Shown: piece after piece, positions 16,019 to 53,638 of the stretch
Layout: the number at the start of each line of letters is the position of its first letter
Position numbering within the stretch: position 1 is the stretch's first letter
Assembly (NCBI RefSeq): GCF_055900595.2
Contig: NZ_CM148325.1
Strand: one strand, 5' to 3'
DNA: 64,000 nucleotides
Program-made: the position numbers and the translations under genes
The notes under the pieces: model-generated
Told to the model about the DNA's origin: nothing
The model's database searches: none
What the model saw: only the letters and a program-made list of their open reading frames with translations

Positions 16019-16723
16019 TTATCCGATATCGCTTCGGGAAGTTAATAACAACTTTAATTCTGACTCAAGTTCATCAACTCTTTCAGTCAGCTTCTGGATA
16101 TGGTGAATCAGTGGAACAACCAGACGTTCGTACATTACACCTTCGGCAACAAGGCCATTGCTGGAAATAGCTTCAGGAGCATCATCTTCGTTAGCTGGTC
16201 GCCAGTGTACAAACTGAGGGGCAATTTCTCCTACTTCCTCGGCAATCAATCCGTAGAACCCCCAGTCACGCCTGTCATTTTCGCATTGCGACCTGTACCA
16301 CACAGGGCGCATCCTGAAAATGACATCGGCGTGCTCTGAATCTATCGTCTCTACTGAATGTTTATAGCGGATAGACGATGTGGACCGCAGTACAGACGAA
16401 ATTGCAGGGTCAGGATTAAGATAAAGGTTTGCCGCCGCAGTAGTCGTGCCCAACCCCCATAAATAAAACGCTTCGCGGCCAGTCAGCGGGTAAAAATCAC
16501 CGCCATAACGACCGCTTTCCAGATCGTTCGCTTCCACTTTGTTTTTCAGCTTATTATCAACTTCAGTTTTTGTGTATCTGGTGCTGATATCCTGCTTTGC
16601 ACTGGTCATATCAATCTGAAGCGTTGATACTTTTCCGTTAATTGAGGAAATATCTTCCTTAGTTTTACTGACATCTCCCTTTAGCGTGGTGATATCTCCA
16701 GGAATTACTGTCGATGTAGCCAT
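16019..16723 (-). CDS. Phage tail-fibre C-terminal domain protein (coiled-coil plus putative chaperone-like C-terminus)
   Basis: 234-aa ORF; heptad-rich N-terminal half (TTLKGDVSKTKEDISSINGKVSTLQIDMTSAKQDIS) and C-terminal coiled coil typical of tail-fibre/spike tips. Confidence 0.5.
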   Translation of the reverse strand: MATSTVIPGDITTLKGDVSKTKEDISSINGKVSTLQIDMTSAKQDISTRYTKTEVDNKLKNKVEANDLESGRYGGDFYPLTGREAFYLWGLGTTTAAANLYLNPDPAISSVLRSTSSIRYKHSVETIDSEHADVIFRMRPVWYRSQCENDRRDWGFYGLIAEEVGEIAPQFVHWRPANEDDAPEAISSNGLVAEGVMYERLVVPLIHHIQKLTERVDELESELKLLLTSRSDIG

Positions 16724-16732
16724 TTGTCTCCC

Positions 16733-17014
16733 TCACATCCAGCCACGAAGTTGATGCTCAACAACAACCGCGTATTCATCGAATATTGACGGTGTTTTCA
16801 CATCATTAATGATGCGCACGTTTACAAAATATCCGTCTTCCTTAACACATACCGGCTCGCCATCTTCAGTAATTTCCCCGGTTTCTTTGTACACGTTACC
16901 TATCACATCAATGAGAACATTGTTCTGCATCACCTCGTCATCGTCATAACCAATGCTATCCATAAAGGCCGAAAAGTCGGCCTTGTCTGTGAATTTGATA
17001 ATTAAGTCTCGCAT
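16733..17014 (-). CDS. Hypothetical phage protein
   Basis: 93-aa acidic ORF, start overlaps the upstream tail-fibre-like gene stop (operon-like). Confidence 0.4.
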   Translation of the reverse strand: MRDLIIKFTDKADFSAFMDSIGYDDDEVMQNNVLIDVIGNVYKETGEITEDGEPVCVKEDGYFVNVRIINDVKTPSIFDEYAVVVEHQLRGWM

Positions 17015-18024
17015 TATATTACCTCTCCCATTTGTGCATCGGTTAATTCTTTATGCCATATACGAAAATTACGAATGTGACCGAAAAGATGACGTAGACC
17101 GCTATTAGTCTGTCCCCCAATCCTGAAGAAATAACCAGATTTAACACCGACATGATCCGTGGTTTTAGGAGTCCCATGCTGGGCATTGCTAACGAAATGC
17201 ACATTACCAGATTCATTTAAAACAAATCCAAGAACAGATTTTTGTTCAAATAATACTGGCGATACGGCGGCTACTGTACTACCGTTTTTATTGTGCATCG
17301 TAACACCAGGAAATAATGTTGAACTAATAGCAACACTTATATATTGACCCGGAGTTGTGCTCCCACCACTGGTATCAAAAATTCGTGGTGCTGCATTTGG
17401 CGTTTCGTTCCAGTTTGTATGAACTTCAGCTAGAAATGTTAAAGGTGGTGTACCGATATTGTTATTTGTTGGTATATTCACCATATCACTGGCTCTTGTG
17501 ACTGGCGTTGCCTCAGTAATAATAAACGAAGAAGCGCACGAACCGCCTTCGACCTGAGGAGTTGCAACATAAATATAATCATCTGCACCAGTGCTTCCCC
17601 CTTTTGGTGGTGCATATTGCACCATCGCACCGATCATATTTTCTGTATCAAGTGCCTTAATTGTTGCCTCAAAGAAAATCCATTTGCTTGCTTCATTTTT
17701 AACAGCCCTTGCAGTAATACGACTTGCAGCGCCGCCAGTTTTATCAATCGATAAATCTGTCATATTTAAGTAAGCATCACCCAGGAATTTGTAGGTAGAT
17801 CCATCATATTCTTCAAATCGTAATCGACATCTTAAATTTGGAGTCCCACTTTGTACCCTGCATGAGATAGTTACATACTTTTCATCGCCGGTAACATCAT
17901 ATCCTTTGCTTCCAGATACTGTGACAATAGAAATGGCTGAGGTTTGCCCCACCATTTCTGGTTTTAATGTGAATTTTGCGTACTGGAAACCAAAATCATC
18001 TACACCTGATGTATTTAAAATCAT
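17014..18024 (-). CDS. Phage tail fibre / receptor-binding-like protein, 5' end abutting IS1 (possibly truncated)
   Basis: ORF 17014-18048 begins with a non-ATG start inside IS1; first ATG (MILNTSG) at 18024; Gly/Thr/Ser-rich beta-type sequence with C-terminal motif NFRIWHKELTDAQMGEVI resembling lectin-like tail-fibre tips. Confidence 0.5.
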   Translation of the reverse strand: MILNTSGVDDFGFQYAKFTLKPEMVGQTSAISIVTVSGSKGYDVTGDEKYVTISCRVQSGTPNLRCRLRFEEYDGSTYKFLGDAYLNMTDLSIDKTGGAASRITARAVKNEASKWIFFEATIKALDTENMIGAMVQYAPPKGGSTGADDYIYVATPQVEGGSCASSFIITEATPVTRASDMVNIPTNNNIGTPPLTFLAEVHTNWNETPNAAPRIFDTSGGSTTPGQYISVAISSTLFPGVTMHNKNGSTVAAVSPVLFEQKSVLGFVLNESGNVHFVSNAQHGTPKTTDHVGVKSGYFFRIGGQTNSGLRHLFGHIRNFRIWHKELTDAQMGEVI

Positions 18025-18049
18025 ATTTGATGACGGTAATGACTCCAAC

Positions 18050-18553
18050 TTATTGATAGTGTTTTATGTTCAGATAATGCCCGATGACTTTGTCATGCAG
18101 CTCCACCGATTTTGAGAACGACAGCGACTTCCGTCCCAGCCGTGCCAGGTGCTGCCTCAGATTCAGGTTATGCCGCTCAATTCGCTGCGTATATCGCTTG
18201 CTGATTACGTGCAGCTTTCCCTTCAGGCGGGATTCATACAGCGGCCAGCCATCCGTCATCCATATCACCACGTCAAAGGGTGACAGCAGGCTCATAAGAC
18301 GCCCCAGCGTCGCCATAGTGCGTTCACCGAATACGTGCGCAACAACCGTCTTCCGGAGCCTGTCATACGCGTAAAACAGCCAGCGCTGGCGCGATTTAGC
18401 CCCGACATAGCCCCACTGTTCGTCCATTTCCGCACAGACGATGACGTCACTGCCCGGCTGTATGCGCGAGGTTACCGACTGCGGCCTGAGTTTTTTAAGT
18501 GACGTAAAATCGTGTTGAGGCCAACGCCCATAATGCGGGCAGTTGCCCGGCAT
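18050..18553 (-). CDS. insB: IS1 transposase InsB
   Basis: 167-aa ORF identical in character to IS1 InsB ([25 protein letters not shown]...). Confidence 0.95.
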
Positions 18554-18747
18554 CCAACGCCATTCATGGCCATATCAATGATTTTCTGGTGCGTACCGGG
18601 TTGAGAAGCGGTGTAAGTGAACTGCAGTTGCCATGTTTTACGGCAGTGAGAGCAGAGATAGCGCTGATGTCCGGCGGTGCTTTTGCCGTTACGCACCACC
18701 CCGTCAGTAGCTGAACAGGAGGGACAGCTGATAGAAACAGAAGCCAC
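18472..18747 (-). CDS. insA: IS1 protein InsA
   Basis: 91-aa [43 protein letters not shown]..., classic InsA with zinc finger. Confidence 0.95.
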
Positions 18748-18797
18748 TGGAGCACCTCAAAAACACCATCATACACTAAATCAGTAAGTTGGCAGCA

Positions 18798-19430
18798 TCA
18801 CCCATTACCGCCCATAATGATGATATTAGTGACGCCCTCACTAAATTCTGCGTAGCTCTCAATATCATCATTTGGATCAAAAGTTTCTTTATCCTTACCT
18901 GACCACTCAGCACCGCCAGACTGAGTGATGATATTTTGTGGTTTAATATTCCAGTCCAGCTCATAACGTTCAATACCATCGCCCTCAATGATATTTTTCC
19001 CCGTTGTGATTGCCTGAACGGCAAGCCATTCAATACGTGCACGAATAGCTTTAGCCTGATTTACAATCGCCTGTTTAACTTTAATATTACGCGCTCCAAA
19101 AGCATTGTATTGCTCAGGTGATACACCAGCAGGGCGCACAGCTAACTTATTTGGATCAATGCTGCTTTTCGGCTTCATATAGCCTGGACGAATTGTTTTT
19201 GATTCGAACCCTTCGTCACGTGAAACTTTACTACCCACCATAGGAGAACAAAACGCTGCAATTGGGATATTTGGATCGTCGATTGTATCAAGAATAATAT
19301 CGCGCGATTCAAACATTACCGAGCGAGTAAAAAACAAACTGGTAAACAACGCATTTAGTTGTTTTTGTACATCTACAGCATTAACCACCTGTACAAGCTG
19401 AGTAGGCGAATATAAATCAACCATACGCAT
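18798..19430 (-). pseudogene. Divergent lambda-E-family major capsid protein gene, 3' end truncated by IS1
   Basis: From Met at about 19430 the translation aligns with lambda gpE (FFTRSVMFESRD..., PGYMKPK, NIITQSGGAEWSGKDKETFDPNDDIESYA) and terminates at the IS1 junction after NIII, roughly half the length of gpE. Confidence 0.65.
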
Positions 19431-19640
19431 CCTCTTTGCATTCATTAAAAATAATTGTGGATATATGCTATCACCGATATTTGTCATGCGAACACATGCA
19501 ACCGAGTGCAATGTTGTATAAAGTTTTGGGGTGACAACTTCAGTGCGGACAATTAGTGTTAATATCTTCACTCCCTTTGGTCGGGATTTATGTAGCATGC
19601 CGGAAAATTTATTTTTTCTGGCTTTTTTTATTGGCAATAT

Positions 19641-20090
19641 TTAAAACGGGATATCATCTCCCCATTGCTCATTATCTCCCACTGGTGGCTGGCTTCCTTG
19701 CTGATCTGCCTGTTGTTTTGCTCTGTTCAGTGCGTCAGTAGCCTGCCCCTGTTGGCCTTTATTGCCGCCCGGTCGCACCGATCGCGCACTGATTACGCTG
19801 TCTGCGATAACCTGCCAGCCCTGCCGCGTTTCGCCGTTCTGTCCAGTCCACTGGCTCATCTGCATGTTACCCGCCACGCTCAGGAGTTCGCCTTTGTGAT
19901 GCTTTGCCAGCGCGTCGGCTTGTCTGCCAAACGCCAGGACAGATAACCACATCGTCGCCTGACCGTCATCCGACTGACTGCAGGGCAGTGATACCGCCAT
20001 ACGCGCCAGCGTCATGGGGGTGCCCTTGCTGGTCTGTTTTGTCTGCGGGTCGTCCACCAACCGCCCGTAAACTGATATTTGCGCCGTCAT
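19641..20090 (-). CDS. ssb: Single-stranded DNA-binding protein (SSB), phage/plasmid type
   Basis: 149-aa ORF with OB-fold-like N-terminus, Gly/Gln-rich linker and acidic C-terminal tail ending DDIPF. Confidence 0.8.
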   Translation of the reverse strand: MTAQISVYGRLVDDPQTKQTSKGTPMTLARMAVSLPCSQSDDGQATMWLSVLAFGRQADALAKHHKGELLSVAGNMQMSQWTGQNGETRQGWQVIADSVISARSVRPGGNKGQQGQATDALNRAKQQADQQGSQPPVGDNEQWGDDIPF

Positions 20091-20332
20091 GCTGCCTGCT
20101 CTCCGGACTTAATATTGATTGTTGTCACTTCCTCCGCTTCAGCAATCTCCCGTTCGGTCAGAGTGGCAAAGTTTGCAGCCGCCGTTGTCATGAATGCGCT
20201 AATCAGTTCGGGATGTGCTTTCGCGTATCCTTCCCCGGCGTTGCGGTCGATGATTTTTATCGACACCCTTAACCAGTGTTCCGTCAAATCAAGGGCGTGC
20301 GATTGTGATTTTTTTGTGTGCTTCGCTGTCAT
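20087..20332 (-). CDS. Hypothetical protein upstream of ssb
   Basis: 81-aa ORF overlapping the ssb start by 4 nt. Confidence 0.4.
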   Translation of the reverse strand: MTAKHTKKSQSHALDLTEHWLRVSIKIIDRNAGEGYAKAHPELISAFMTTAAANFATLTEREIAEAEEVTTINIKSGEQAA

Positions 20333-20384
20333 AGGCTTTATCTCACAGCAGTAAATTAAAATTTTTGCGTTTTAACCCTTCACC

Positions 20385-20605
20385 TGTTCACCTTTTGATA
20401 TTTTCTCTTTTAATTCATAATGTTAATGGGTGAACAGTTTCACAAAAACTATTCACCAACTGTTCACCACTGTTCACCCTTGAAGCTCAATAAACAATCA
20501 AAAAGGTGAACAGTGAATAGTTTGGTGAACAGTTCATAAATAACTGTTCACCCTATAATATACTGATATAAAAGATATTTATGACAGGGTGAACAGTGGT
20601 GAACA
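20385..20605. repeat. P4-type replication origin/crr-like iteron cluster (TGTTCACC octamers)
   Basis: Nine copies of TGTTCACC / GGTGAACA in both orientations (20385, 20429, 20461, 20471, 20505, 20524, 20545, 20588, 20598) with an AT-rich stretch, immediately 3' of the primase gene. Confidence 0.75.
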
Positions 20606-20619
20606 GTTATTCCATAAGT

Positions 20620-22440
20620 TTAATTTTTGCTATCGTCATTAGTGACCGATACACATGATGGCATCCAGTCTTCTGATTCCTCCGTCAGTGTCACGTTTGA
20701 ACGCAAACCGTGCTTCGTTTTCCGTTTCATATACTCCCTGCCATATTCCGCCATTGCCCCCGGCATATCTTTACCGAAGCGCGTCAGTGTTACAGGTTTA
20801 CCAAACCCATGTGCCCTCATATAAGCCAGATAGGCATGATAGAGATACCTGCGTGGGCTAAATGGCACAATTTCAGCATTACCCACTAACAGGCCATCAC
20901 ACATTACCGATGCCATGAGATAGCCGCAGAAGTCCACCAGCGAATCCCCCTCTCGCTTTATCGCCAGTGCTTCTTCAGATTTCTGCTGCTCATATAACAG
21001 GCGTCTGGCTTCGTCCTGATCATCAAACCGTGTAAGCAGATGACGAATCACTACCGCCAGCTCACCTTCTATTTTTTCCGCCAGCATCGAATCGCGTTCG
21101 TTCTCCGGTACAACTTCCGAAAAATTGAATATCACCCGACGACGTGAGATCCCCCCGCTGCGGTCACTGAATGACATGGCGTTATTGTTAACCGCCAGCA
21201 CTACTGCCGGAATACGCGTTGAATAGGGGGCTTTGTGTTTCGGGTCAATTGCCACCTTGTCACCGCCTGTAATGGCCTTAATCCCTGCCCCATCACCAGC
21301 GTAGCGGGTCATATCCGGCATGATAATCAGCGAAAAGCCAACCACTAACGCACGTTCCCTTGCATCTTCCAGCGCCTTCATGCTTGCTGATACTGTATTA
21401 GCCTTACCCGCCAGCATGGTGCAAATCTCCGCCATCACACTTTTACCACTTCCCCCCGGCCCTGTTACCTCAATGAATAACTGCCAGTCGTACCGGTTCG
21501 CCAGCACCATGAATAATGCCGCCAGTACGCGATCTGCCTTGCGGTCATTCTCAGCCACCGAACGGCGCAACCACTTCCAGAAATTCGGCGCATGTGTTGC
21601 CAGCGTTTCCCCCTCTGCTGGTGGGCTGAAAGGTAATTCACTGGCAATTAACAACCAGTCGTTTTTGTTATGCTCCCGAAAATTACCTGTTCTGGTATCA
21701 AATACCCCGTTACTGAATCCAATCAGGTTACGGGCTGTATTCCCCATTACAGGCAAACTTAACTTCATGGTATCTACCGCCGATTTAATGGCGTTCTGCG
21801 AATAGCTGATCTCCACATCAATGAAAATCTGCGCCATAGCACGCTGTAACTCTTTATCCTGAACCGGCTCCCATACAACGCCGTTGTAATGATGAACGGT
21901 GTCAGAGTCGGCATTGATTGCCAGTTCGCCGCCGTAATGTGCCAGGAGAACTTCACCGCGCTGGCTGGCCCCCATCTGATTCAACGCCAAAGATGAAGCA
22001 CGCTCGTCATTTTTGCGCTCTGCCTTCTTCACTGGCAGTTCAATCACCAGACTTTCCCCATGCTCCGCTTCAGCTTTTAGGCCGACAAGGCGCGGAGTCC
22101 AGTCTTCAGGCTCTCGATCAACAAAGCTACGGTAACAACGTGCTTCCTTTACGCCTGCAATAGCAAGTAATGTCGCAACCTTCGTCAGATTTTTCTCTGC
22201 GATCTTTCCGGCACGATAAACACGCACATAATGACGGCCTTCATCGATAATTTGCATATCATCCAGGTTTTCCAGTTGTTCCGTACCCAGAATTACTGGT
22301 GGTGTATCATCTGCTGCAATATGCTTACCCGCCCATTCATTCCATTCTTTTGCATGGCTCCAGGCATCACTGCCAGCAAAAATGATGACTTCTGTCATTT
22401 TGTCGCGCGGTTGGTATTTTAAGTTCGGAGCACGTTTCAT
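20620..22440 (-). CDS. P4-alpha-family primase/helicase (phage/plasmid primase, P-loop NTPase)
   Basis: 606-aa ORF with Walker A GPGGSGKS and primase C-terminal-type sequence; adjacent to TGTTCACC iterons. Confidence 0.8.
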   Translation of the reverse strand: MKRAPNLKYQPRDKMTEVIIFAGSDAWSHAKEWNEWAGKHIAADDTPPVILGTEQLENLDDMQIIDEGRHYVRVYRAGKIAEKNLTKVATLLAIAGVKEARCYRSFVDREPEDWTPRLVGLKAEAEHGESLVIELPVKKAERKNDERASSLALNQMGASQRGEVLLAHYGGELAINADSDTVHHYNGVVWEPVQDKELQRAMAQIFIDVEISYSQNAIKSAVDTMKLSLPVMGNTARNLIGFSNGVFDTRTGNFREHNKNDWLLIASELPFSPPAEGETLATHAPNFWKWLRRSVAENDRKADRVLAALFMVLANRYDWQLFIEVTGPGGSGKSVMAEICTMLAGKANTVSASMKALEDARERALVVGFSLIIMPDMTRYAGDGAGIKAITGGDKVAIDPKHKAPYSTRIPAVVLAVNNNAMSFSDRSGGISRRRVIFNFSEVVPENERDSMLAEKIEGELAVVIRHLLTRFDDQDEARRLLYEQQKSEEALAIKREGDSLVDFCGYLMASVMCDGLLVGNAEIVPFSPRRYLYHAYLAYMRAHGFGKPVTLTRFGKDMPGAMAEYGREYMKRKTKHGLRSNVTLTEESEDWMPSCVSVTNDDSKN

Positions 22441-22724
22441 TTGTTACCTCCGGCAACTAACATTGCCCGAATTTTGCGGATATAGCCTGCGGCACGCCTC
22501 TGATTATCTGTCTTGCAATTTTTTACCAGAATGAAATCTCTTTCGAACTGCTGACGCGGCATAACACATTCAAAATCATAACCATCACGCAAATAAGAGA
22601 CACGACGATCATCAACCGAAATAATCTTTACCCGATAGCCATAGCTGTCTTTGAAAATATCCCCAAGGCTGATTTTTGAATGAGTTTGACCGCTGGCAAT
22701 AAAGCCAGAAAATTTATTTTTCAT
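22437..22724 (-). CDS. Hypothetical protein of the P4-like module
   Basis: 95-aa ORF overlapping the primase start (operon-like). Confidence 0.45.
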   Translation of the reverse strand: MKNKFSGFIASGQTHSKISLGDIFKDSYGYRVKIISVDDRRVSYLRDGYDFECVMPRQQFERDFILVKNCKTDNQRRAAGYIRKIRAMLVAGGNK

Positions 22725-22727
22725 TTT

Positions 22728-22952
22728 TTATTCTCCGGTATAGCTCTGGTCGTGTATTTTTATAGCTTCATCCAGCTCTTTGATGACAGGATCAAGTAAC
22801 GTAATTAACGCTCCAGCTAAATTAGCATCCCGTTCATCGTGTTCCGCATTTGTTGTCCCATCAAGCCAGGTTGATAAGATTTCTCGCATATTTTTGCCAC
22901 AAACGAGCGCGTTTTCAGCATGTGTCAGCACTTTAAAATAAAGATCATTCAT
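22728..22952 (-). CDS. Hypothetical protein of the P4-like module
   Basis: 74-aa acidic ORF in tandem with downstream genes. Confidence 0.4.
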   Translation of the reverse strand: MNDLYFKVLTHAENALVCGKNMREILSTWLDGTTNAEHDERDANLAGALITLLDPVIKELDEAIKIHDQSYTGE

Positions 22953-23259
22953 GGCACACCTCCTGACGAATACGGGCGGCGAATATCATCACGTAGCCAG
23001 TTGGGGATTGCAGCCGGGCTTCCTGTTCGCTGGCGGCCTCGATGGTAATCACGCGCGGTTGTGCCGTACTCAGGGCGATAAAACGCCAGATGTATTTATT
23101 CAGGTTGTGCGGGTCCCGCCCTTGCGGGTGTGTGGTATGATTTCTCATAGCTACCTCGATACTGTTGCTATCGTTGGTGGTTAGAAGCCCGTTGGTGTTC
23201 CTAGCACCTTCGGGCTTTGCTTTTTTAAGTGCCTCCGTGTTAAGGTGGTCACCTAACAA
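22945..23259 (-). CDS. Hypothetical protein of the P4-like module (true start probably the internal Met at 23148)
   Basis: 104-aa ORF; 5' part overlaps an opposite-strand ORF, so a shorter 67-aa product from 23148 is more plausible. Confidence 0.35.
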   Translation of the reverse strand: MLGDHLNTEALKKAKPEGARNTNGLLTTNDSNSIEVAMRNHTTHPQGRDPHNLNKYIWRFIALSTAQPRVITIEAASEQEARLQSPTGYVMIFAARIRQEVCHE

Positions 23260-23479
23260 TGAAAAGGCTAATTCAATAGGTGGTCACTTGTCAACGATCA
23301 AACGCGATAAAAGTCCTAAGGGTGATGGGCAATCTCCACAATTCAGAATGCGAATTTCTCCAGAGCTAAAAGAGCAATTCGACAAAGAAGCGCAGAGCGA
23401 CGGCATAAGCCTAGCCAACTGGCTTAAAGAATTAGGGCGCAAAGAGCTGCTACGGCGCGGTATTGAACCAAAAGGATAA
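23165..23479 (+). CDS. Putative ribbon-helix-helix DNA-binding protein (true start probably internal)
   Basis: C-terminal 45 residues (QFRMRISPELKEQFDKEAQSDGISLANWLKELGRKELL) fit an Arc/CopG-type RHH pattern; two GGTGGTCAC direct repeats lie just upstream of the likely start. Confidence 0.45.
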   Translation: MLSLVVRSPLVFLAPSGFAFLSASVLRWSPNNEKANSIGGHLSTIKRDKSPKGDGQSPQFRMRISPELKEQFDKEAQSDGISLANWLKELGRKELLRRGIEPKG

Positions 23480-23506
23480 GAATAATTGAAGTCAAGGAGC
23501 TAACAC

Positions 23507-23863
23507 ATGAAATACGAATTCTTCGCAACAAGTAGCAGTAGTTTGGATGTATACATAGTCACTGTATCAAACGATTCTGGCTCTCTAATCATGACTTGTA
23601 ATTGTCCAGCAGGAAGTAAAGGTATTCTATGTAGACACCGTAAAGCTTTAATTACCGGAAAAATCCGCGGTATATTCACTCCCCCAAGAAGGAATAATCC
23701 CGAAAAATTACAAGAAGCTATAAATTTAATAGCCACATATGGCATAGATAAAACATTAAAGTTGTACACTGATGAGTTAGAACGAGCAGAACAGACTTGG
23801 ATAAGTGTTCGCGATAATTTGAGAGCAATGATAAACGCTCTTGTTGAACCACCTAAATATTGA
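23507..23863 (+). CDS. Small SWIM-zinc-finger-like protein (cargo gene)
   Basis: 118-aa AT-rich ORF with CxC-x8-CxH motif (CNCPAGSKGILCRH); followed by a hairpin terminator. Confidence 0.55.
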   Translation: MKYEFFATSSSSLDVYIVTVSNDSGSLIMTCNCPAGSKGILCRHRKALITGKIRGIFTPPRRNNPEKLQEAINLIATYGIDKTLKLYTDELERAEQTWISVRDNLRAMINALVEPPKY

Positions 23864-23929
23864 ACTGTTCACATTGCCTATCAGGCGATAACCTCGTATT
23901 CTGATTAAGGCTAACTATATACTCACATT

Positions 23930-23955
23930 GGCGACCAATTCTGGTCGCCTTTATC
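23930..23955. terminator. Hairpin between two convergent cargo genes (likely bidirectional intrinsic terminator)
   Basis: GGCGACC-aattct-GGTCGCC stem-loop followed by TTTATC; sits between the convergent 118-aa and 284-aa genes. Confidence 0.55.
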
Positions 23956-23994
23956 TACCATTTTTATAATATCATAGATTAAGAGTGTTAATCC

Positions 23995-24849
23995 TTACCC
24001 CCTGAATGGAATTGATGAGGATTTAATTTCCACAGAACCAAATCCTCTTGAATCCAAAAACATTTTTATACCAGCCTCAATAAAATCATAATCGCTTGTC
24101 GGGCCAATTGTAATGCTTTTAATTGGTAACTTTCTATTATCTTTATTATTAATAATGATATAAGGGATGATACCATTATTATTTATTCTAAATTTCACAT
24201 CTGGCATTTGTATCCACGGAGTAAACACCAGTCTAAATTCATTTTCTTCGATAAAACTAGGATGTTTAAAAAATGGGATATATTTAGATATAAATTGATA
24301 CGTAGAGACCATTGTTACAAAATGATCATTCATTTCTTTAATGTTAATACCATTACAAGAAAAAAACTCATCCAACTCCTTACTCATCTTTGTAATATCG
24401 TCATTATTTGAATATATAACATCATGTGCAACACAATTTAAATAAATATTTTGACAAAAACTCACAAGTTCATCCGCATCAAATTCAATGCAAACGCCCT
24501 GTTTATTTCCGTAACCTCTCCACTGACTTAACTTATCGTTTTCTTTACAAAAAGATATGCTATAAACATGTTTATCAATCCCTTTTTCTTTTTGTAACTT
24601 CCCTTTCTCATACATGTCAAGAGACTTGAGCAAAATAGTTTTCTTATCTTTTGGGATGATATTATCATCAACTATTTTAATTGTATTTCGAAAACATTCA
24701 CATCCATGGTTAGACTCCTCTTTATCATTTAAGAAATATATATTTGTAGCCCATAAAGAATTAGAGTCTAATATACCTTTCAAACCAAAAAGATCTGTAT
24801 AATGAAATATAGCCACAATGCCCCACCTAATAGTTAAGTCGTTTCCCAC
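23995..24849 (-). CDS. DUF2971-like protein (candidate anti-phage cargo gene)
   Basis: 284-aa very AT-rich ORF; motifs FHYTDLFGLKGIL, YFLNDKEE, SISFC...LSQWRGYGN..GVCIEFD resemble my recollection of DUF2971; overlaps the alpA stop (co-transcribed). Confidence 0.5.
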   Translation of the reverse strand: MGNDLTIRWGIVAIFHYTDLFGLKGILDSNSLWATNIYFLNDKEESNHGCECFRNTIKIVDDNIIPKDKKTILLKSLDMYEKGKLQKEKGIDKHVYSISFCKENDKLSQWRGYGNKQGVCIEFDADELVSFCQNIYLNCVAHDVIYSNNDDITKMSKELDEFFSCNGINIKEMNDHFVTMVSTYQFISKYIPFFKHPSFIEENEFRLVFTPWIQMPDVKFRINNNGIIPYIIINNKDNRKLPIKSITIGPTSDYDFIEAGIKMFLDSRGFGSVEIKSSSIPFRG

Positions 24850-25064
24850 TCACCTCGAATCCATGCCTGCACTTCTGAAAGACGATATGCAACAGCAGTG
24901 GAACCAATCTTGATCCGCTTAGGAAATTTTCCTTCCTTCTCCAGCTTCCAGCGTGTGCTGTTCGCAAGAGTGGTTAGCTCCCGACATTCTTTCTCACGGA
25001 TCATACGATCGATGTTAGGAATGTACTCCAGACCCTTTTTATCAACAATTGCCATTTTTTTCAT
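24834..25064 (-). CDS. alpA: AlpA-family phage transcriptional regulator/excisionase-like HTH protein
   Basis: 76-aa ORF directly downstream of the integrase, sequence pattern (ELTTLANSTRWKLEKEGKFPKRIKIGSTAVAYRLSEVQAWI) typical of AlpA. Confidence 0.8.
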   Translation of the reverse strand: MKKMAIVDKKGLEYIPNIDRMIREKECRELTTLANSTRWKLEKEGKFPKRIKIGSTAVAYRLSEVQAWIRGEWETT

Positions 25065-25065
25065 G

Positions 25066-26352
25066 TTAACCAGCCTTTTGTTTGAGGATTGTCACTTTTG
25101 AATCAGCACCTGCGATGCTATTGAGATATGTAGTCCAGAGTTCCAGAGCATCCAGTTTTTTAGCCATAAACTTACTCCGGTTGTAAACACCCGCCACGCC
25201 AGGTAGCGCATGGCCTAACAGTTGTTCTACTACATAAAATTCAACACCGAGATCACTTAGATGAGTAGATAGCGTTCTTCTAAGGTCGTGTAGTGACCAT
25301 TGTTTTTCATGGCCCAAACGTTTACCGATTTTCCCCCCAATCTTGCTTACGCTTTCTCTAATTCGCAGACTTCCCAGCACATAACCAGTATGTTTTGTCT
25401 CTTCGTGAACATCCGTTACCCACTGTCGTAGAATTTCAGGTACTGGTCTGACGATTTCAACACCAGTTTTTGAGTGATCTTTTGGTACCGTCCAAACCCA
25501 ACTTTCGAGATCCCATTCGCTCCATTCAGATAATCGGGCTTCACTCATTCGACATCCAAATACTGTACAAAGCACAAACATTTTTCGCGTGTATTCAGAC
25601 ATTAGTTTTAAATCAGGCTCGACAAAAATTGCCTTCCAGAGCTGGCCGAGTTCGGCTTCATCCAGAACCCGATCCCGCTTACCTGCAATCTGCCCCACAT
25701 CACTCATGCGCAAATCCTTTAAAGCATCACACGTCGCGTACTGGCGTACCCGACAAAAACGAAGAGCTAATTTAGTGTCAGAAAAAACATACGCCGCCAT
25801 AACTGGTGCATTACGTTTAATTCGGTCAAAACAGTCCAGCCATTCATATAGGTGAGTGTCATTTACGGGCAAATGACCGATATAGGGAAAGATATGCTTT
25901 CGAAATCTGCCAAGCGTTACAGCATGAGTTTTACGACGCACCTTACAGTAATTTTCATACCAGTAATTTAGTGCATCCTCCACTGTGACCGGCTTTAAGC
26001 GTTCTTCAGCCTGAATCTTAATCTGGATACGCGGATCACGTTTGTCAGCCAACCAACCACGGCACTCGTCGCGCTTTTCCCTTGCCTGTTTGAGTGACAT
26101 ATCAGGATATTTACCCAACGTTAGCCAGACCGGAGCAGCCCGGCCACCTGCTAACCTGTAGAAGAAAACAAAGCTCACAGCCCCTTTAGTACTCACACGA
26201 ATAGAAAGCCCCTTTCCATCAGCAATGGTGATCTGCTTTTCTCTGGGTTTCCCCAGATATCCTTTAAGCGCTTTGTCGCTCAGTTTGTTCTCGCCAGCCA
26301 TTTTTAGCCCCAAAAAGCAATACAAGCTGCAATACAGAGATGATTGCAACAC
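25066..26352 (-). CDS. Tyrosine recombinase/integrase (P4-type)
   Basis: 428-aa ORF with C-terminal catalytic region containing HDLRRT and LLGHA...Y motifs; int-alpA arrangement typical of P4-like islands. Confidence 0.85.
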   Translation of the reverse strand: MLQSSLYCSLYCFLGLKMAGENKLSDKALKGYLGKPREKQITIADGKGLSIRVSTKGAVSFVFFYRLAGGRAAPVWLTLGKYPDMSLKQAREKRDECRGWLADKRDPRIQIKIQAEERLKPVTVEDALNYWYENYCKVRRKTHAVTLGRFRKHIFPYIGHLPVNDTHLYEWLDCFDRIKRNAPVMAAYVFSDTKLALRFCRVRQYATCDALKDLRMSDVGQIAGKRDRVLDEAELGQLWKAIFVEPDLKLMSEYTRKMFVLCTVFGCRMSEARLSEWSEWDLESWVWTVPKDHSKTGVEIVRPVPEILRQWVTDVHEETKHTGYVLGSLRIRESVSKIGGKIGKRLGHEKQWSLHDLRRTLSTHLSDLGVEFYVVEQLLGHALPGVAGVYNRSKFMAKKLDALELWTTYLNSIAGADSKVTILKQKAG

Positions 26353-26433
26353 ACAGATAACGAGGAAAATTCAGTGAAAGCACCAGATAAACTTATTCTT
26401 TATTATCAAAAGATTAAGTGTAAAAACCAGCAA

Positions 26434-26709
26434 CTACACGAAAGCCTCAGAAAGCCATGCTAAGTGCTTGGGTTTGACATAACCCGGCGTAAATTCAGAG
26501 GTGGAGCCGCCACGGGATCGGATAACCTCACCGGAAACAATCGGCGAAACGTACAGCGCCATGTTTACCAGTCCCGGAATTTGTGAGAGATAGACTTTTT
26601 CCGTGGTGAAAGGATAGGTTTCACGGAAAAACAGGCGCAGAAACAGCGGATCGAACTTAAAGTGATGCTGGGTCGATGCCAGTAATTCTGCAGTTGTATA
26701 TACAGACAT
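26434..26709 (-). pseudogene. E: Lambda major capsid protein E, N-terminal ~80 codons only (truncated)
   Basis: MSVYTTAELLASTQHHFKFDPLFLRLFFRETYPFTTEKVYLSQIPGLVNMALYVSPIVSGEVIRSRGGSTSEFTPGYVKPKH is near-identical to lambda gpE N-terminus, then diverges and stops. Confidence 0.85.
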
Positions 26710-33607: not shown

Positions 33608-33901
33608 ATGAAAAAAATGTTGTTTTCTGCCGCTCTGGCAATGCTTATTACAGGATGTGCTCAACAGACGTTTACTGTTGGAAACAAACCGACAGCAGTA
33701 ACACCAAAGGAAACCATCACCCATCACTTCTTCGTTTCGGGAATTGGACAGGAGAAAACTGTTGATGCAGCCAAAATTTGTGGCGGCGCAGAAAATGTTG
33801 TTAAAACAGAAACCCAGCAAACATTCGTAAATGGATTGCTCGGTTTTATTACTTTAGGCATTTATACTCCGCTGGAAGCGCGTGTGTATTGCTCACAATA
33901 A
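33608..33901 (+). CDS. borD: Bor serum-resistance lipoprotein
   Basis: ORF 33560-33901; start at MKKMLFSAALAMLITGCAQQ (lipobox) gives a 97-aa protein matching lambda Bor. Confidence 0.85.
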   Translation: MKKMLFSAALAMLITGCAQQTFTVGNKPTAVTPKETITHHFFVSGIGQEKTVDAAKICGGAENVVKTETQQTFVNGLLGFITLGIYTPLEARVYCSQ

Positions 33902-33932: not shown

Positions 33933-34394
33933 CTATCTGCACTGCTCATTAATATACTTCTGGGTTCCTTCCAGTTGTTTTTGCATAGTGATCAGCCTCT
34001 CTCTGAGGGTGAAATAATCCCGTTCAGCGGTGTCTGCCAGTCGGGGGGAGGCTGCATTATCCACGCCGGAGGCGGTGGTGGCTTCACGCACTGACTGACA
34101 GACTGCTTTGATGTGCAACCGACGACGACCAGCGGCAACATCATCACGCAGAGCATCATTTTCAGCTTTCGCATTAGCTAACTCCTTCGTGTATTTTTCA
34201 TCCAGTGCAGCAACATCACGCTGGCGCATCTGCATGTCAGTAATTGCCGCGTTCGCCAGCTTCAGTTCTCTGGCATTTTTGTCGCGCTGGGCTTTGTAGG
34301 TAATGGCGTTATCACGGTAATGATTAACAGCCCATGACAGGCAGACGATGATGCAGATAACCAGAGCGGAGATAATCGCGGTTACTCTGTTCAT
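33933..34394 (-). CDS. rzpD: Rz i-spanin
   Basis: ORF 33933-34406; start at [17 protein letters not shown] (TM anchor) then coiled-coil; overlaps R stop. Confidence 0.85.
33992..34174 (-). CDS. rzoD: Rz1 o-spanin lipoprotein embedded in Rz in the +1 frame
   Basis: 60-aa ORF with lipobox (VVVGCTS) and proline-rich segment ([18 protein letters not shown]) wholly inside Rz. Confidence 0.85.
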
Positions 34395-34888
34395 TGCTGA
34401 CCCCACAAACAGATTTCACGCTCAATCTCACGACGAGTCATGAGACCTTTCCATTGCTTACCGCCAGCATATGTCCAGCGACGTAGCTGATCACATGCGC
34501 CTTTGATATCGCCCTGGTTTATTTTGCGAAGAAGCGTCGATGTTCTGAAATTGCCAGCGCCCACGTTGTAAACGAACGAGTAAAGAGCGCCGCGCGTTGT
34601 TTCCGGTATATCAACTTTTATGTACGGGTTAATTTGTCTGGCGACCGTGGCAAGGTCTTTATTCAGGAGGGCTTTGCATTCTGCTTTGGTATACGTTTTA
34701 CCGAGCATGATGTCTTTTCCTGTATGCCCGTGACATACAGTCCATACACCAACAATATCTTTGTATGGTATGTAGCTGACACCTTCCAGACCATCGTTAC
34801 CACTTGGGCCAGTGATTAACACTGATGCTATAGCAATTGCTCCGCCACCAATAGCAGCAGCAACGGCTTTTCGTAATGATGGAGGCAT
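34391..34888 (-). CDS. rrrD: R endolysin (lysozyme)
   Basis: 165-aa ORF matching remembered DLP12 RrrD lysozyme. Confidence 0.9.
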
Positions 34889-35103
34889 TATTCACCTCTC
34901 GCAGCCTTGCGCTTATCTTCTTTAATCTTGAAATAAAGGTTTGTCAGGTACGTCAGCAGGCCAAATACCAGGCTACCCAGCACACCTATTGCTGCCCACT
35001 GTGAGGGCGTGACTTTATCGAGCAGCTGTAAAAACCAGTAACCGGCACTACCTGCTGAGGTGCCATAGGCGACACCCGTTGTTAACTTATCCATGGATTT
35101 CAT
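34888..35103 (-). CDS. essD: S holin
   Basis: ORF 34888-35148; start at [14 protein letters not shown] gives a 71-aa holin with two TM segments; overlaps R start. Confidence 0.85.
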
Positions 35104-35822
35104 AACCCCACCTCGCAGACAAAGCGGGTGTAAATTGAGGGAATACAACGTATCGCAAAAAAGCAGAAACGTAACAGACTCGGAGTCAGTGAATAACTCA
35201 GGTATTGAGTTATCAGCTAATATCGAGACTCAAAAAATGGAAAAACCAGCTCGACGGCGGGTTTAAGCTGTGTGACGAAGTAACCACTCTTAACAGCATA
35301 ACCAATTTTTTACGTACGTAAACCACTGAATGATATTTATGAGAATGCTACCGAGTGTTCAAAACACCACCACAAATATATAAGAAAACCTCAACAAATA
35401 ACCAATAAATAATTTCCGGCGTTATTTTTAGTTGATTTGAATTAAACCACCGAATTATAGAACCCCCATAAATAACAGCCATTAATATAAATTAGCTAAT
35501 AGGTTTATTTTTGTTCAAATAAGAGCCATAAATAGGTTTCGATAGAAAAAGTTCAGATAAAAATAGAGATCTACTTCACAAATTAAATGAGAAACTAAAA
35601 CTTACATCTTGAAATAATCACATTGATTAGATGAATATTTATCGCGCAGTGACATCATTTTTTAATAATAGTTCAAAAAAAAGGGCTCACGATGAAAAAA
35701 TTAACAGTGGCAATTTCTGCTGTAGCTGCATCAGTACTGATGGCGATGTCTGCTCAGGCAGCTGAAATTTATAATAAAGACAGTAACAAGCTGGATCTGT
35801 ACGGGAAAGTTAATGCCAAGCA

Positions 35823-37151
35823 CTGATGAATCCCCTAATGATTTTGGTAAAAATCATTAAGTTAAGGTGGATACACATCTTGTCATATGATCAAATGGTT
35901 TCGCCAAAAATCAATAATCAGACAACAAAATGTGCGAACTCGATATTTTACACGACTCTCTTTACCAATTCTGCCCCGAATTACACTTAAAACGACTCAA
36001 CAGCTTAACGTTGGCTTGCCACGCCTTACTTGACTGTAAAACTCTCACTCTTACCGAACTTGGCCGTAACCTGCCAACCAAAGCGAGAACAAAACATAAC
36101 ATCAAACGAATCGACCGATTGTTAGGTAATCGTCACCTCCACAAAGAGCGACTCGCTGTATACCGTTGGCATGCTAGCTTTATCTGTTCGGGCAATACGA
36201 TGCCCATTGTACTTGTTGACTGGTCTGATATCCGTGAGCAAAAACGGCTTATGGTATTGCGAGCTTCAGTCGCACTACACGGTCGTTCTGTTACTCTTTA
36301 TGAGAAAGCGTTCCCGCTTTCAGAGCAATGTTCAAAGAAAGCTCATGACCAATTTCTAGCCGACCTTGCGAGCATTCTACCGAGTAACACCACACCGCTC
36401 ATTGTCAGTGATGCTGGCTTTAAAGTGCCATGGTATAAATCCGTTGAGAAGCTGGGTTGGTACTGGTTAAGTCGAGTAAGAGGAAAAGTACAATATGCAG
36501 ACCTAGGAGCGGAAAACTGGAAACCTATCAGCAACTTACATGATATGTCATCTAGTCACTCAAAGACTTTAGGCTATAAGAGGCTGACTAAAAGCAATCC
36601 AATCTCATGCCAAATTCTATTGTATAAATCTCGCTCTAAAGGCCGAAAAAATCAGCGCTCGACACGGACTCATTGTCACCACCCGTCACCTAAAATCTAC
36701 TCAGCGTCGGCAAAGGAGCCATGGATTCTAGCAACTAACTTACCTGTTGAAATTCGAACACCCAAACAACTTGTTAATATCTATTCGAAGCGAATGCAGA
36801 TTGAAGAAACCTTCCGAGACTTGAAAAGTCCTGCCTACGGACTAGGCCTACGCCATAGCCGAACGAGCAGCTCAGAGCGTTTTGATATCATGCTGCTAAT
36901 CGCCCTGATGCTTCAACTAACATGTTGGCTTGCGGGCGTTCATGCTCAGAAACAAGGTTGGGACAAGCACTTCCAGGCTAACACAGTCAGAAATCGAAAC
37001 GTACTCTCAACAGTTCGCTTAGGCATGGAAGTTTTGCGGCATTCTGGCTACACAATAACAAGGGAAGACTCACTCGTGGCTGCAACCCTGCTTACTCAAA
37101 ATCTATTCACACATGGTTACGTTTTGGGGAAATTATGAGGGGATCTCTCAG
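35823..37151 (+). mobile_element. IS10 insertion sequence (1329 bp) with 9-bp target-site duplication
   Basis: Ends CTGATGAATCCCCTAATGATTTTGG... and ...GAAATTATGAGGGGATCTCTCAG; flanked by direct repeats TGCCAAGCA at 35814-35822 and 37152-37160. Confidence 0.95.
35930..37138 (+). CDS. IS10 transposase
   Basis: 402-aa ORF beginning 107 bp inside IS10, matching IS10 transposase sequence. Confidence 0.95.
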
Positions 37152-38301
37152 TGCCAAGCACTACTTTTCCTCTAACGATGCAGATGATGGTGATACTACT
37201 TATGCCCGTCTTGGCTTCAAAGGTGAAACCCAAATCAACGATCAACTGACTGGTTTCGGTCAGTGGGAATATGAATTCAAAGGCAACCGCGCTGAATCTC
37301 AAGGTTCCTCCAAAGACAAAACCCGTCTTGCATTTGCAGGCCTGAAATTCGGTGACTACGGCTCAATCGATTACGGCCGTAACTACGGTGTAGCATACGA
37401 CATCGGTGCGTGGACTGACGTCCTGCCAGAATTCGGTGGTGATACCTGGACCCAAACAGATGTGTTCATGACTGGTCGCACTACTGGTGTTGCAACTTAT
37501 CGTAACAACGACTTCTTTGGTCTGGTCGATGGCCTGAACTTTGCTGCTCAGTATCAGGGTAAAAATGACCGCACTGACGTAACTGAAGCCAATGGTGATG
37601 GTTTCGGTTTCTCCACTACTTATGAGTATGAAGGATTCGGCGTGGGTGCAACCTATGCTAAATCAGATCGCACTGACGGTCAGGTCGCCTATGGTAAGAG
37701 CAAATTCAATGCCTCCGGCAAAAATGCGGAAGTATGGGCTGCAGGCCTGAAATATGATGCGAACAATATCTATCTGGCTACCACATATTCTGAAACTCAG
37801 AATATGACCGTTTTTGGTAATAACCATATTGCAAACAAAGCACAAAACTTTGAAGCAGTAGCACAATATCAGTTTGACTTCGGTCTGCGCCCATCTGTTG
37901 CTTACCTTCAGTCAAAAGGTAAAGACCTTGGTGTTCATGGTGACCGAGACTTAGTCAAGTATGTCGATGTCGGTGCTACTTACTACTTTAATAAAAACAT
38001 GTCCACTTTTGTTGATTACAAAATCAACTTAATTGACGATAGTAAGTTTACCAAAACAGCTGGTATTGATACTGATGACATCGTTGCTGTAGGTCTGGTT
38101 TACCAGTTCTAATCTGATTACGAAAAAGATATGTTGCGGGAGGCGTTGCCTCCCCAACATATAAGTGGCTCCCTCAAGCCACTTCCTTTAGAAGCACAAC
38201 CTTGCTTCTAACTATATAAACCTTCTGTTATATATTACCCTTTATTTTTGGGGGCGTCTCAACGCCCCATTTTTAATAATTTTTAGTAAACAATTGGCAT
38301 A

Positions 38302-38700
38302 TTAATTAGAGTTATTAACAACGATATCCATCTCTAACCGGATATCTAATGCCATTAACATCCCTTCAATTATGCCCTCAGCCTTTTGTAACCTTTTCCC
38401 GATATAACCATCAGAGCAGCAATGCTTACCTGCCAGTGACATGAATGTCATACCGACTACATAATAATCTACTAATAAATCGTGCAAATCGCTGTTGTTC
38501 TTTTTCAGACGGGCCATGCACCCGCAAATGATCATCGCGTCATCGTCACAACATTGCGGGCGAGATTTTACTTTTGAAGGAATTAATCCCTTAAAACCGG
38601 CGGCAATGGACGACCAGGTCACATCTTCATGATTATTAGCCGCCCACGCTCCCCAACGCTCAAGAACCATCTGAATATCACGCATCAACTTACTCCACAA
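38302..38700 (-). CDS. quuD: Q late-gene antiterminator
   Basis: 132-aa Cys-rich ORF ([16 protein letters not shown]...HCCSDGY) upstream of the lysis cassette. Confidence 0.8.
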
Positions 38701-52184: not shown

Positions 52185-52527
52185 GGCCTGTCAGTTTCTT
52201 AAGATATCCAGACCAACCGCCACCAACTGGATACGAACAGGCCGCCTACAGGCAACACGTAAAGATCCAACCAAGCCAAAATCTCCTTACCTCACAACAC
52301 GGCAAGCCTGCATTGCGGCGCTTCAGTCTCCGCTGCATACTGTCCAGGTGAGCGCGGGTGATGGCATAACAGAGGAAAGAAAATGTCACTCTTCCGCAGA
52401 AATGAAATATGGTATGCCTCGTATTCGCTCCCGGGCGGGAAACGAATTAAGGAATCTCTTGGCACAAAGGACAAGCGGCAAGCTCAGGAGTTGCACGACA
52501 AGCGAAAAGCAGAACTCTGGCGAGTAG
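52156..52527 (+). CDS. xisD: Excisionase-like HTH protein (3' end overlaps int; true stop uncertain)
   Basis: From Met at 52156: [37 protein letters not shown] is an Xis/AlpA-type HTH; overlap with int as in lambda xis-int. Confidence 0.5.
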
Positions 52528-53546
52528 AAAAGCTAGGGGATTTACCTGATGTCACTTTTGAAGAGGCCTGCCTAAGATGGCTTGAGGAAAAAGCTGATAA
52601 AAAATCTCTCGATTCAGATAAAAGCCGGATTGAGTTCTGGCTTGAACATTTTGAGGGTATAAGGCTTAAAGATATCTCGGAGGCAAAGATTTACTCTGCT
52701 GTAAGCAGAATGCATAACAGAAAGACGAAAGAAATATGGAAACAGAAAGTTCAGGCCGCCATCAGGAAAGGTAAAGAACTGCCTGTTTATGAACCAAAGC
52801 CAGTATCAACTCAGACAAAGGCAAAGCATCTTGCCATGATAAAGGCCATTCTCCGTGCTGCAGAACGCGACTGGAAGTGGCTGGAAAAAGCGCCTGTCAT
52901 CAAGATACCAGCGGTCAGAAACAAGCGAGTCAGATGGCTGGAAAAGGAGGAAGCAAAACGCCTTATTGATGAGTGCCCCGAACCACTGAAATCTGTCGTC
53001 AAGTTTGCGCTGGCAACTGGTCTGAGAAAGTCGAACATCATAAATCTGGAATGGCAACAAATCGACATGCAGCGACGAGTTGCCTGGGTGAATCCAGAAG
53101 AGAGCAAATCAAACCGCGCCATTGGTGTGGCGCTGAACGATACCGCCTGTAAAGTGTTGCGTGATCAAATAGGCAAGCATCACAAATGGGTGTTTGTACA
53201 TACCAAGGCGGCTAAGCGAGCAGATGGAACATCAACGCCTGCGGTCAGGAAGATGCGCATCGACAGCAAGACATCATGGCTATCAGCTTGTCGTCGTGCA
53301 GGAATTGAAGATTTCCGTTTCCATGACCTCAGACACACCTGGGCAAGCTGGCTGATTCAGTCAGGCGTCCCATTATCAGTGCTTCAGGAAATGGGCGGAT
53401 GGGAGTCCATAGAAATGGTTCGTAGGTATGCTCACCTTGCGCCTAATCATTTGACAGAGCATGCGAGGAAAATAGACGACATTTTTGGTGATAATGTCCC
53501 AAATATGTCCCACTCTGAAATTATGGAGGATATAAAGAAGGCGTAA
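52383..53546 (+). CDS. intD: Prophage tyrosine integrase
   Basis: 387-aa ORF with HDLRHTWAS...VRRYAHL catalytic motifs, ending 15 bp from argU. Confidence 0.9.
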
Positions 53547-53561
53547 CTGATTGAATTGTAA

Positions 53562-53638
53562 TGGCGCGCCCTGCAGGATTCGAACCTGCGGCCCACGACT
53601 TAGAAGGTCGTTGCTCTATCCAACTGAGCTAAGGGCGC
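53562..53638 (-). tRNA. argU: tRNA-Arg (UCU anticodon), prophage attL
   Basis: Reverse complement gives GCGCCCTTAGCTCAGTTGGATAGAGCAACGACCTTCTAAGTCGTGGGCCGCAGGTTCGAATCCTGCAGGGCGCGCCA, cloverleaf-compatible with CCA end. Confidence 0.9.

Follow-up and report, generated by a model that had tools for sequence, protein, structure and literature searches.

Why is the porin gene of a prophage broken by an insertion sequence (IS) at one particular place, and does the break tell of selection against the porin or of the target preference of the element? We address this question for a 64,000-nucleotide stretch of contig NZ_CM148325.1 (RefSeq assembly GCF_055900595.2; hereafter the window), in which an nmpC-type porin gene of a lambdoid prophage at argU is split by IS10, an element of the IS4 family. 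An initial annotation of the window had described the split and had suggested recurrent selection against expression of the porin. In our assessment it is highly probable that IS10 inserted here in the ordinary way, at a naturally occurring target hotspot and independently of the IS5 insertion in the same gene of Escherichia coli K-12, and that no selection is needed to account for it.

A porin gene split by a complete IS10

The anatomy of the insertion was read directly from the window, and a script reproduced every coordinate that the initial annotation had given for the element and its flanking repeats. IS10 occupies 35823-37151 on the + strand (1,329 bp, outside end on the left), with the outside end, CTGATGAATCCCC..., beginning at 35823 and the inside end, ...GGGGATCTCTCAG, finishing at 37151. 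Its terminal inverted repeats, CTGATGAATCCCCTAATGATTTT at 35823-35845 (+ strand) and CTGAGAGATCCCCTCATAATTTC, as read on the - strand, at 37129-37151, agree at 17 of 23 positions by a hand count from the script output. Directly outside them lie the two copies of a 9-bp target-site duplication, TGCCAAGCA (left copy 35814-35822, right copy 37152-37160). The 9-mer has no further copy on either strand of the window, and their exact 9/9 match would arise by chance with a probability of ~4e-6. Full element and exact duplication together bear out the simple insertion that had been proposed.

The transposase open reading frame (ORF), which reads inward from the outside end, is intact (35930-37138, + strand, 402 aa plus stop), and its product matches Pfam PF01609 (DDE_Tnp_1) with E = 1.5e-24 and 87.3 bits against a cut-off of 23. 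Intact ORF and ends would be compatible with an element still able to transpose. RefSeq's annotation pipeline (PGAP) labels such IS10 copies as 'IS4-like element ISVsa5 family' transposases. There is one IS10 in the window, which is therefore not part of a composite Tn10. This copy differs from that in nmpC of strain BM28 at 12 of 1,329 nt, with four amino acid differences in the transposase, and from those in AR_0085 and O111:H11 at 4 nt. Its near-identity to IS10-Right is judged via the BM28 copy and not via the Tn10 reference sequence itself; the BM28 copy was named IS10R by its authors, whose text implies identity to the IS10R of their Tn10 (PMC10044804). Among the window's copy and those of the other loci compared (L001-L016), the differences form blocks (24-47, 83-203, 410-425, 903 and 1249-1300) that reassort from copy to copy, as recombination or conversion between IS10R-like and IS10L-like variants would give, and the window's combination of blocks is found in none of the other 13 copies examined.

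The porin gene begins with an ATG at 35692, and its 5′ fragment (35692-35822, + strand) comprises codons 1-43 and two bases of codon 44. Codon 44 (CAC) corresponds to 35821-35823, and IS10 starts on its third base, so that the gene is split inside this codon just as the initial annotation had it. A TGA at 35824-35826, inside IS10, closes a porin stub of 44 codons. The 3′ fragment (37161-38112, + strand) resumes at the third position of codon 44, extends to the stop codon and has no other lesion. Indeed, excising 35823-37160 in silico directly restored an ORF of 1,083 nt (360 aa plus stop) without a frame shift, and the frame had rightly been said to resume perfectly after the element. The reconstructed protein is identical to WP_000737271.1, the intact porin of THO-008, 118UI, E. 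coli C and 510016, and matches Porin_1 over residues 29-360 (profile positions 1-337 of 337, E = 1.9e-151), as befits a full-length general porin of the NmpC/Lc type (OmpC/OmpF/PhoE superfamily). Against the product of nmpC fragment 1 in MG1655, 316 of 346 aligned residues are identical, and the differences are grouped in short internal stretches that we take to be surface loops. The name nmpC is thus appropriate as a positional and family assignment, and membership in the family predicts that the product of the intact gene would be an outer-membrane channel. The insertion point lies 21 residues into the mature protein, with the end of the signal peptide (...SAQA followed by AEIYNK) placed by homology and not by a prediction tool; the break had been located right after the signal peptide, and comes soon after it instead.

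In the mechanism that we propose, one IS10 copy would have entered the porin gene of the argU prophage by cut-and-paste transposition, and filling in of the staggered 9-bp cut would have produced the TGCCAAGCA duplication. The position would have been set by the target preference of IS10, the window allele being a common natural variant one base off the TGCTAAGCA of most alleles. Porin translation would halt at the TGA in IS10 after 44 codons and the remaining 316 codons are cut off from the promoter, the start codon and the signal peptide, which would kill the gene and abolish porin function. A chimeric ORF of 325 codons (37135-38112, + strand) begins at an ATG overlapping the transposase stop (ATGA) and continues, in the same frame, through the porin 3′ fragment. 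It lacks a signal peptide and presumably serves no function, and the amount of any fusion product would not exceed the very low output of transposase translation. This ORF accounts for the long 'porin' fragment that annotation pipelines call directly after the transposase.

Empty sites and recurrence at the same nine base pairs

The annotation of MG1655 gives nmpC as a pseudogene in two pieces, the IS5B lying 58 bp from its 3′ end, in agreement with the IS5 near the 3′ end that the initial annotation had given for K-12. The site at codons 41-44 is empty there and reads TGCTAAGCA, and IS10 is absent from the MG1655 genome. Since MG1655 carries IS5B elsewhere in the gene and an empty codon 41-44 site, the lesion in the window is independent of that in K-12, as had been claimed.

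Empty sites were also observed directly in nearer relatives. The best matches to the window reach 99.6-99.7%, and its ompT, cus and nfrAB genes fit E. coli. The prophages of THO-008 (99.6% identity over 7.8 kb of the left flank) and 118UI are the closest to that of the window; in both the porin gene is uninterrupted and the empty site is TGCTAAGCA, one base from the TGCCAAGCA of the window. The latter, C-type site is itself found empty: a 62-nt probe across it has exact matches in at least 317 genomes, E. coli C and BLR(DE3) among them. Because the C variant is common as an empty site, it is not a change that followed insertion; TGCCAAGCA was already in place when IS10 arrived. The window allele is a mosaic: between -239 and +392, counted from the ATG, it has 100% identity with the empty allele of E. 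coli C, and its part from +328 to the stop codon agrees fully with the 118UI type. Half of the differences between the window and 118UI, its closest empty allele, are three single-nucleotide polymorphisms adjoining the site, and a recombination tract linked to the IS was considered for them. This was rejected, since empty C-type alleles show the ordinary mosaic and these polymorphisms are the sole differences between the types in the conserved 5′ part.

How often has IS10 entered this site? We searched complete genomes with a query across both junctions of the window and with a synthetic query in which the IS was reversed, fetched the matching loci and placed IS10 ends and duplications by script. 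Both searches were able to report IS10 elsewhere within ~1.4 kb, as is shown by a case at nt 517 of the gene. IS10 was found at the same 9 bp in 14 complete E. coli records besides the window, and the junctions were verified in all of these except three sister records (H3, H5 and H90). The element lies in the forward orientation in AR_0085 (TGCCAAGCA, in a prophage with an intD integrase), in BM28 and BM28 lysU (in DLP12 of K-12, together with IS5), in two O111:H11 strains (in another lambdoid prophage) and in 16843 (in a porin remnant between yedK and fliE), the duplication being TGCTAAGCA in all but the first. It lies in the reverse orientation in 2017-03-3CC (in a remnant adjoining ompT), two isolates of WI2 (lambdoid prophage), 98203 (DLP12-like prophage), 88COLEC (the yedK-fliE remnant) and MMC-J-0085 (an IS-rich island), all with TGCTAAGCA, as well as in LR-64-1 (prophage with an intD integrase; TGCTAAGCA and CGCTAAGCA, one copy being mutated) and in the phage-plasmid pEC21Z048-103K (TGCAGAGCA). 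In LR-64-1 (locus L013, 5255-6601) the two duplication copies are one base apart and the IS10 has a private substitution, which suggests an insertion older than the others.

The occupied sites comprise three target-sequence variants, several IS10 variants and at least four genomic settings, and between the porin alleles at them as many as 300 of 1,124 aligned columns differ. For example, 16843 and 88COLEC have alleles only 2 nt apart and IS10 in opposite orientations, and the reconstructed gene of BM28 shows 0 differences from MG1655. Opposite orientations, differing IS10 and target variants, differing settings and the presence in BM28 of an MG1655 allele without an ancestral IS10 argue for separate events, and the two orientations contradict the descent of all occupied alleles from one insertion. 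With conservative merging (window with AR_0085, WI2 with LR-64-1, and 2017-03-3CC with 98203), these comparisons indicate at least nine independent IS10 events at the site. Orientation is unbiased, with 4-5 forward and 5-7 reverse events.

The only other IS10 site seen in the gene was nt 517 (TGCTCAGTA), in one pig lineage and with a rearrangement. HCP5S3_I2 and LCP30S3_I5, candidates for the same site, proved to have IS10 at nt 517 and were counted as a separate site. In HCP5S3_I2 (locus L010, 5657-6985) the nt 517 target is a one-mismatch version of the IS10 core given below, the 9 bp on the two sides differ, and the far side of IS10 is joined to a tRNA-Arg and an integrase gene, an arrangement that hints at a deletion or inversion associated with IS10. 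Also set aside as a same-site case was the pigeon strain 'numer 3' (H7, 81% coverage), whose IS10 lies elsewhere (duplication TGCTGTTGC) and whose porin gene is mostly deleted.

Two individual reports of the insertion exist. In BM28, IS10R was reported at codon 44 of 346 in nmpC, with the gene flagged as already interrupted in the wild type (PMC10044804), and for pSvP1 a P7 nmpC::IS10 was described whose repeat, TGCTCTGCA, is the reverse complement of the TGCAGAGCA of pEC21Z048-103K (PMC6906374). Beyond these, our literature search found no paper naming the site as an IS10 hotspot or noting its recurrence. Site and element were thus already on record in other strains, and the extent of the recurrence is a modest new point that has apparently gone unremarked. 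According to the initial annotation, the same element at the same site in reference strains would have counted against an independent inactivation; what we find is that it occurs in non-reference strains and not in MG1655.

Target preference, selection and shared descent

The target core of IS10 and Tn10 is GCTNAGC within the duplicated nine bases (as quoted in PMC10044804). In most porin alleles, here called T-type, nt 124-132 read TGCTAAGCA and contain GCTAAGC, which agrees at 6/6 core positions and is the sole perfect match in the gene, with three or four further sites at one mismatch. The window allele has GCCAAGC, with 5/6 of the specified core positions. That IS10 chose a one-mismatch site suggests that flanking context adds to its attractiveness. 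Effects of sequence context on Tn10 targets are established.

A rough tally gives an idea of how strongly the site is used. Subtracting ~4,400 porin-matching places from ~10,800 places matched leaves ~6,500 IS10 copies in the collection, of which 14 are at this one site. The density in the window extrapolates to ~860 perfect cores per 5-Mb genome. An even spread over perfect cores, with the T-type site in perhaps half of the genomes, predicts ~4 insertions versus the 14 seen, an estimate that is crude because IS10 copies are not independent events. The site could be an unusually strong IS10 hotspot by virtue of its flanking context, or retention of the insertions could be aided by an advantage of porin loss, or both; we consider this rather unlikely. 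If true, it would provide a naturally replicated system in which target preference could be parted from selection in IS-mediated gene loss.

Several points weigh against an explanation by target preference. In the window's C-type allele the occupied site is one of four one-mismatch sites in the gene, and the 64-kb window holds 11 perfect cores left unused along with 278 one-mismatch cores, so the consensus core alone does not explain the choice of site and a role for flanking context is assumed. The comparison of cores covered the porin gene and the 64-kb window. Other IS types have hit the gene as well, namely IS5 in K-12 and IS1 in E. coli B and strain 3359. The best target would also be used if porin loss were selected with IS10 as a mere mutagen, so recurrence would be compatible with selection too. 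Finally, window and AR_0085 may share one ancestral event, given their common orientation, C-type duplication and collinear block of 99.3% identity.

One alternative is that a prophage porin is costly, for example as a phage receptor, a route of antibiotic entry or a burden on the envelope, and that null alleles are repeatedly selected with IS10 as one mutagen. The variety of lesions would fit this: besides the IS5 and IS1 insertions, there are those of IS10, at nt 124 (many strains) and nt 517 (one lineage), and the deletion of the porin in 'numer 3'. However, in BM28 IS10 went into this very codon of an nmpC gene that was a pseudogene beforehand, and elsewhere it went into porin remnants at the yedK-fliE locus in both orientations; since IS10 hits the gene even where it is already dead, selection is not required. 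Moreover, only 14 of the 3,170 porin-matching complete genomes have IS10 at the site, a near-full-length copy is kept in one place by 2,490 of the 3,170, and the identical intact protein is widespread. The only NmpC phenotype that we found is a benefit, with 50- to 1,000-fold better survival at 60 C (PMC5093140); a lowering of heat resistance by NmpC, which would favour its loss in the heat-evolved BM28, was considered and dropped because the same review reports the opposite. The prophage of the window is decaying anyway, and neutral loss would be enough. We therefore regard selection against the porin as improbable as a significant driver. The initial annotation's recurrent inactivation is even truer than stated, with IS5, IS1 and IS10 all involved, yet the inference of selection is not supported when IS10 sits at the same 9 bp, in both orientations, in 14 other records.

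The reading that competes more closely concerns the origin of the window's own copy, which may come from an older C-type IS10 allele shared with AR_0085, either by descent or through homologous recombination of one prophage with another, and so would not be a fresh event in this strain. This is a real possibility, though we think it the less probable one. The two share the orientation, the rarer TGCCAAGCA duplication and a collinear block of 7,408 bp at 99.3% identity; their IS10 copies differ at only 4 clustered positions (24, 25, 27 and 47), in the manner of a conversion patch, and the mosaic porin allele of the window (E. coli C-like to +392, 118UI-like from +328) is also in keeping with exchange. 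Against it, the flanks outside the IS differ by ~0.8% (48 of ~6,080 nt), and each has a nearer relative with an empty site, the distances being 6 nt between the window and 118UI, 5 nt between AR_0085 and THO-008, and 12 nt between the window and AR_0085. Empty C-type targets are common, so that two separate hits are plausible, and the window's duplication is still exact and its ORF without other lesion. An assembly artefact, or a chance resemblance with no real insertion behind it, can practically be dismissed: no evidence for it was found, IS10 is present at full length, with both ends and an unbroken transposase gene, between exact 9-bp repeats without further copies in the window, and the same architecture recurs in 14 independently assembled complete-genome records.

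From the general description of IS10, transcription from the porin promoter would enter the element in the same sense as the transposase gene, and the outward promoter near the outside end would be directed to the left, antisense to the porin stub, with essD/rrrD ~675 bp ahead. In a scan for consensus promoters, neither of the two IS10 promoters, inward or outward, reached the thresholds. That both orientations are used equally speaks against a selected role for the outward promoter.

The case carries a caution, in that repeated independent knock-outs of a gene resemble selection, and here the sequence preference of a transposon would suffice. For annotation, split 'PhoE / porin' fragments around 'ISVsa5-family' transposases in many E. 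coli genomes can be read as one nmpC-type prophage porin plus IS10. The nine or more events could serve as a natural benchmark for target choice by IS10; the finding leaves the understanding of IS10, porins and prophages unchanged.

Known insertions and the prophage setting

The insertion can be compared with several known systems. nmpC::IS5 of MG1655 (DLP12, b0553) resembles it in lying antiparallel between quuD and essD, in an argU prophage, and in being inactivated by an IS, but the element is IS5B and not IS10, it lies 58 bp from the 3′ end and not at codon 44, and the two porin genes differ in ~200 of 1,124 aligned columns. nmpC::IS10R of BM28 has the same IS family, codon, 9-bp position and orientation and likewise an exact duplication (PMC10044804). 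It differs in that its target, TGCTAAGCA, has a perfect core, its IS10 copy is 12 nt different, and the gene, which carries the K-12 IS5 too, was already dead; BM28 is a heat-evolved, Tn10-carrying K-12 strain, and its event arose in the laboratory from Tn10. The P7-type nmpC::IS10 of pSvP1 (PMC6906374) and pEC21Z048-103K occupies the homologous 9 bp with an exact 9-bp duplication, but in a porin gene different in ~300 of 1,124 columns, at the target TGCAGAGCA, in the opposite orientation, and on a P1-like phage-plasmid instead of a chromosomal lambdoid prophage. The porin gene of E. coli B BLR(DE3) belongs to the C-type allele family, has the same prophage context and is also IS-inactivated, but by an IS1 in mid-gene (locus L019, 2396-4255), its first fragment ending after ~579 nt and its codon 41-44 site being empty. 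With classical Tn10/IS10 hotspots the nmpC site shares the 9-bp duplication, the match or near-match to GCTNAGC and the use of both orientations; unlike them it is a natural site, occupied across wild isolates rather than in the course of a genetic screen. This porin gene has a different IS lesion in each of the K-12, B and Tn10-bearing laboratory lineages.

In the window the porin gene lies antiparallel between the late antiterminator gene quuD, a Q homologue (38302-38685, ORF 38302-38700, - strand), and the lysis genes rrrD (lysozyme) and essD (holin; 34391-35103, ORFs to 35148, - strand), which follow the porin region downstream on the strand of the late operon, all identified from ORFs and the annotation of relatives, near-identical ones in the case of the lysis genes. 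The same layout is annotated for nmpC in DLP12 of MG1655 and in other strains. Beside the lysis genes, at ~33608-33901, there should be a gene for an Iss/Bor-type serum-survival lipoprotein, a position predicted from relatives with 99.6% identity in which the gene is annotated (L021 33616-33909, collinear with the window). The prophage ends with an integrase ORF (52383-53546) adjoining a tRNA-Arg(TCT) gene (53562-53638), argU, which is the integration site of DLP12. When 14.9-15.9 kb was compared with 53.4-53.75 kb for a prophage attachment repeat, no word of ≥12 nt proved common to both.

Apart from 16660-26465, the window and the complete-looking prophage of THO-008 are collinear. In that segment ~9.8 kb of other sequence stands in place of the tail module and of the major capsid gene's 3′ part; homology to THO-008 resumes within the capsid gene. 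The replacement contains an IS1 transposase fragment (18050-18553), an SSB gene (19641-20090), a P4-family primase gene (20620-22440) and a tyrosine integrase gene (25066-26352), and resembles either a small integrative element of satellite type or a rearrangement within the prophage. Because the tail genes are missing through this replacement, the prophage is already defective, and the IS10 insertion is one lesion among several in it.

Two further observations concern loci met in the searches. In 88COLEC the IS10-split porin remnant between yedK and fliE has a chromosomal colistin-resistance unit immediately on its upstream side; this mcr-1.1 and PAP2 unit (locus L014, 1-4880) has ISApl1 on both sides and IS903B between the left ISApl1 and mcr-1.1. 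In addition, a LacI-family regulator gene carries IS10 in three seemingly unrelated strains, O39:NM F8704-2, IAL7252 and EC24.26 (H15, H16 and H18), and may be another recurrent IS10 target.

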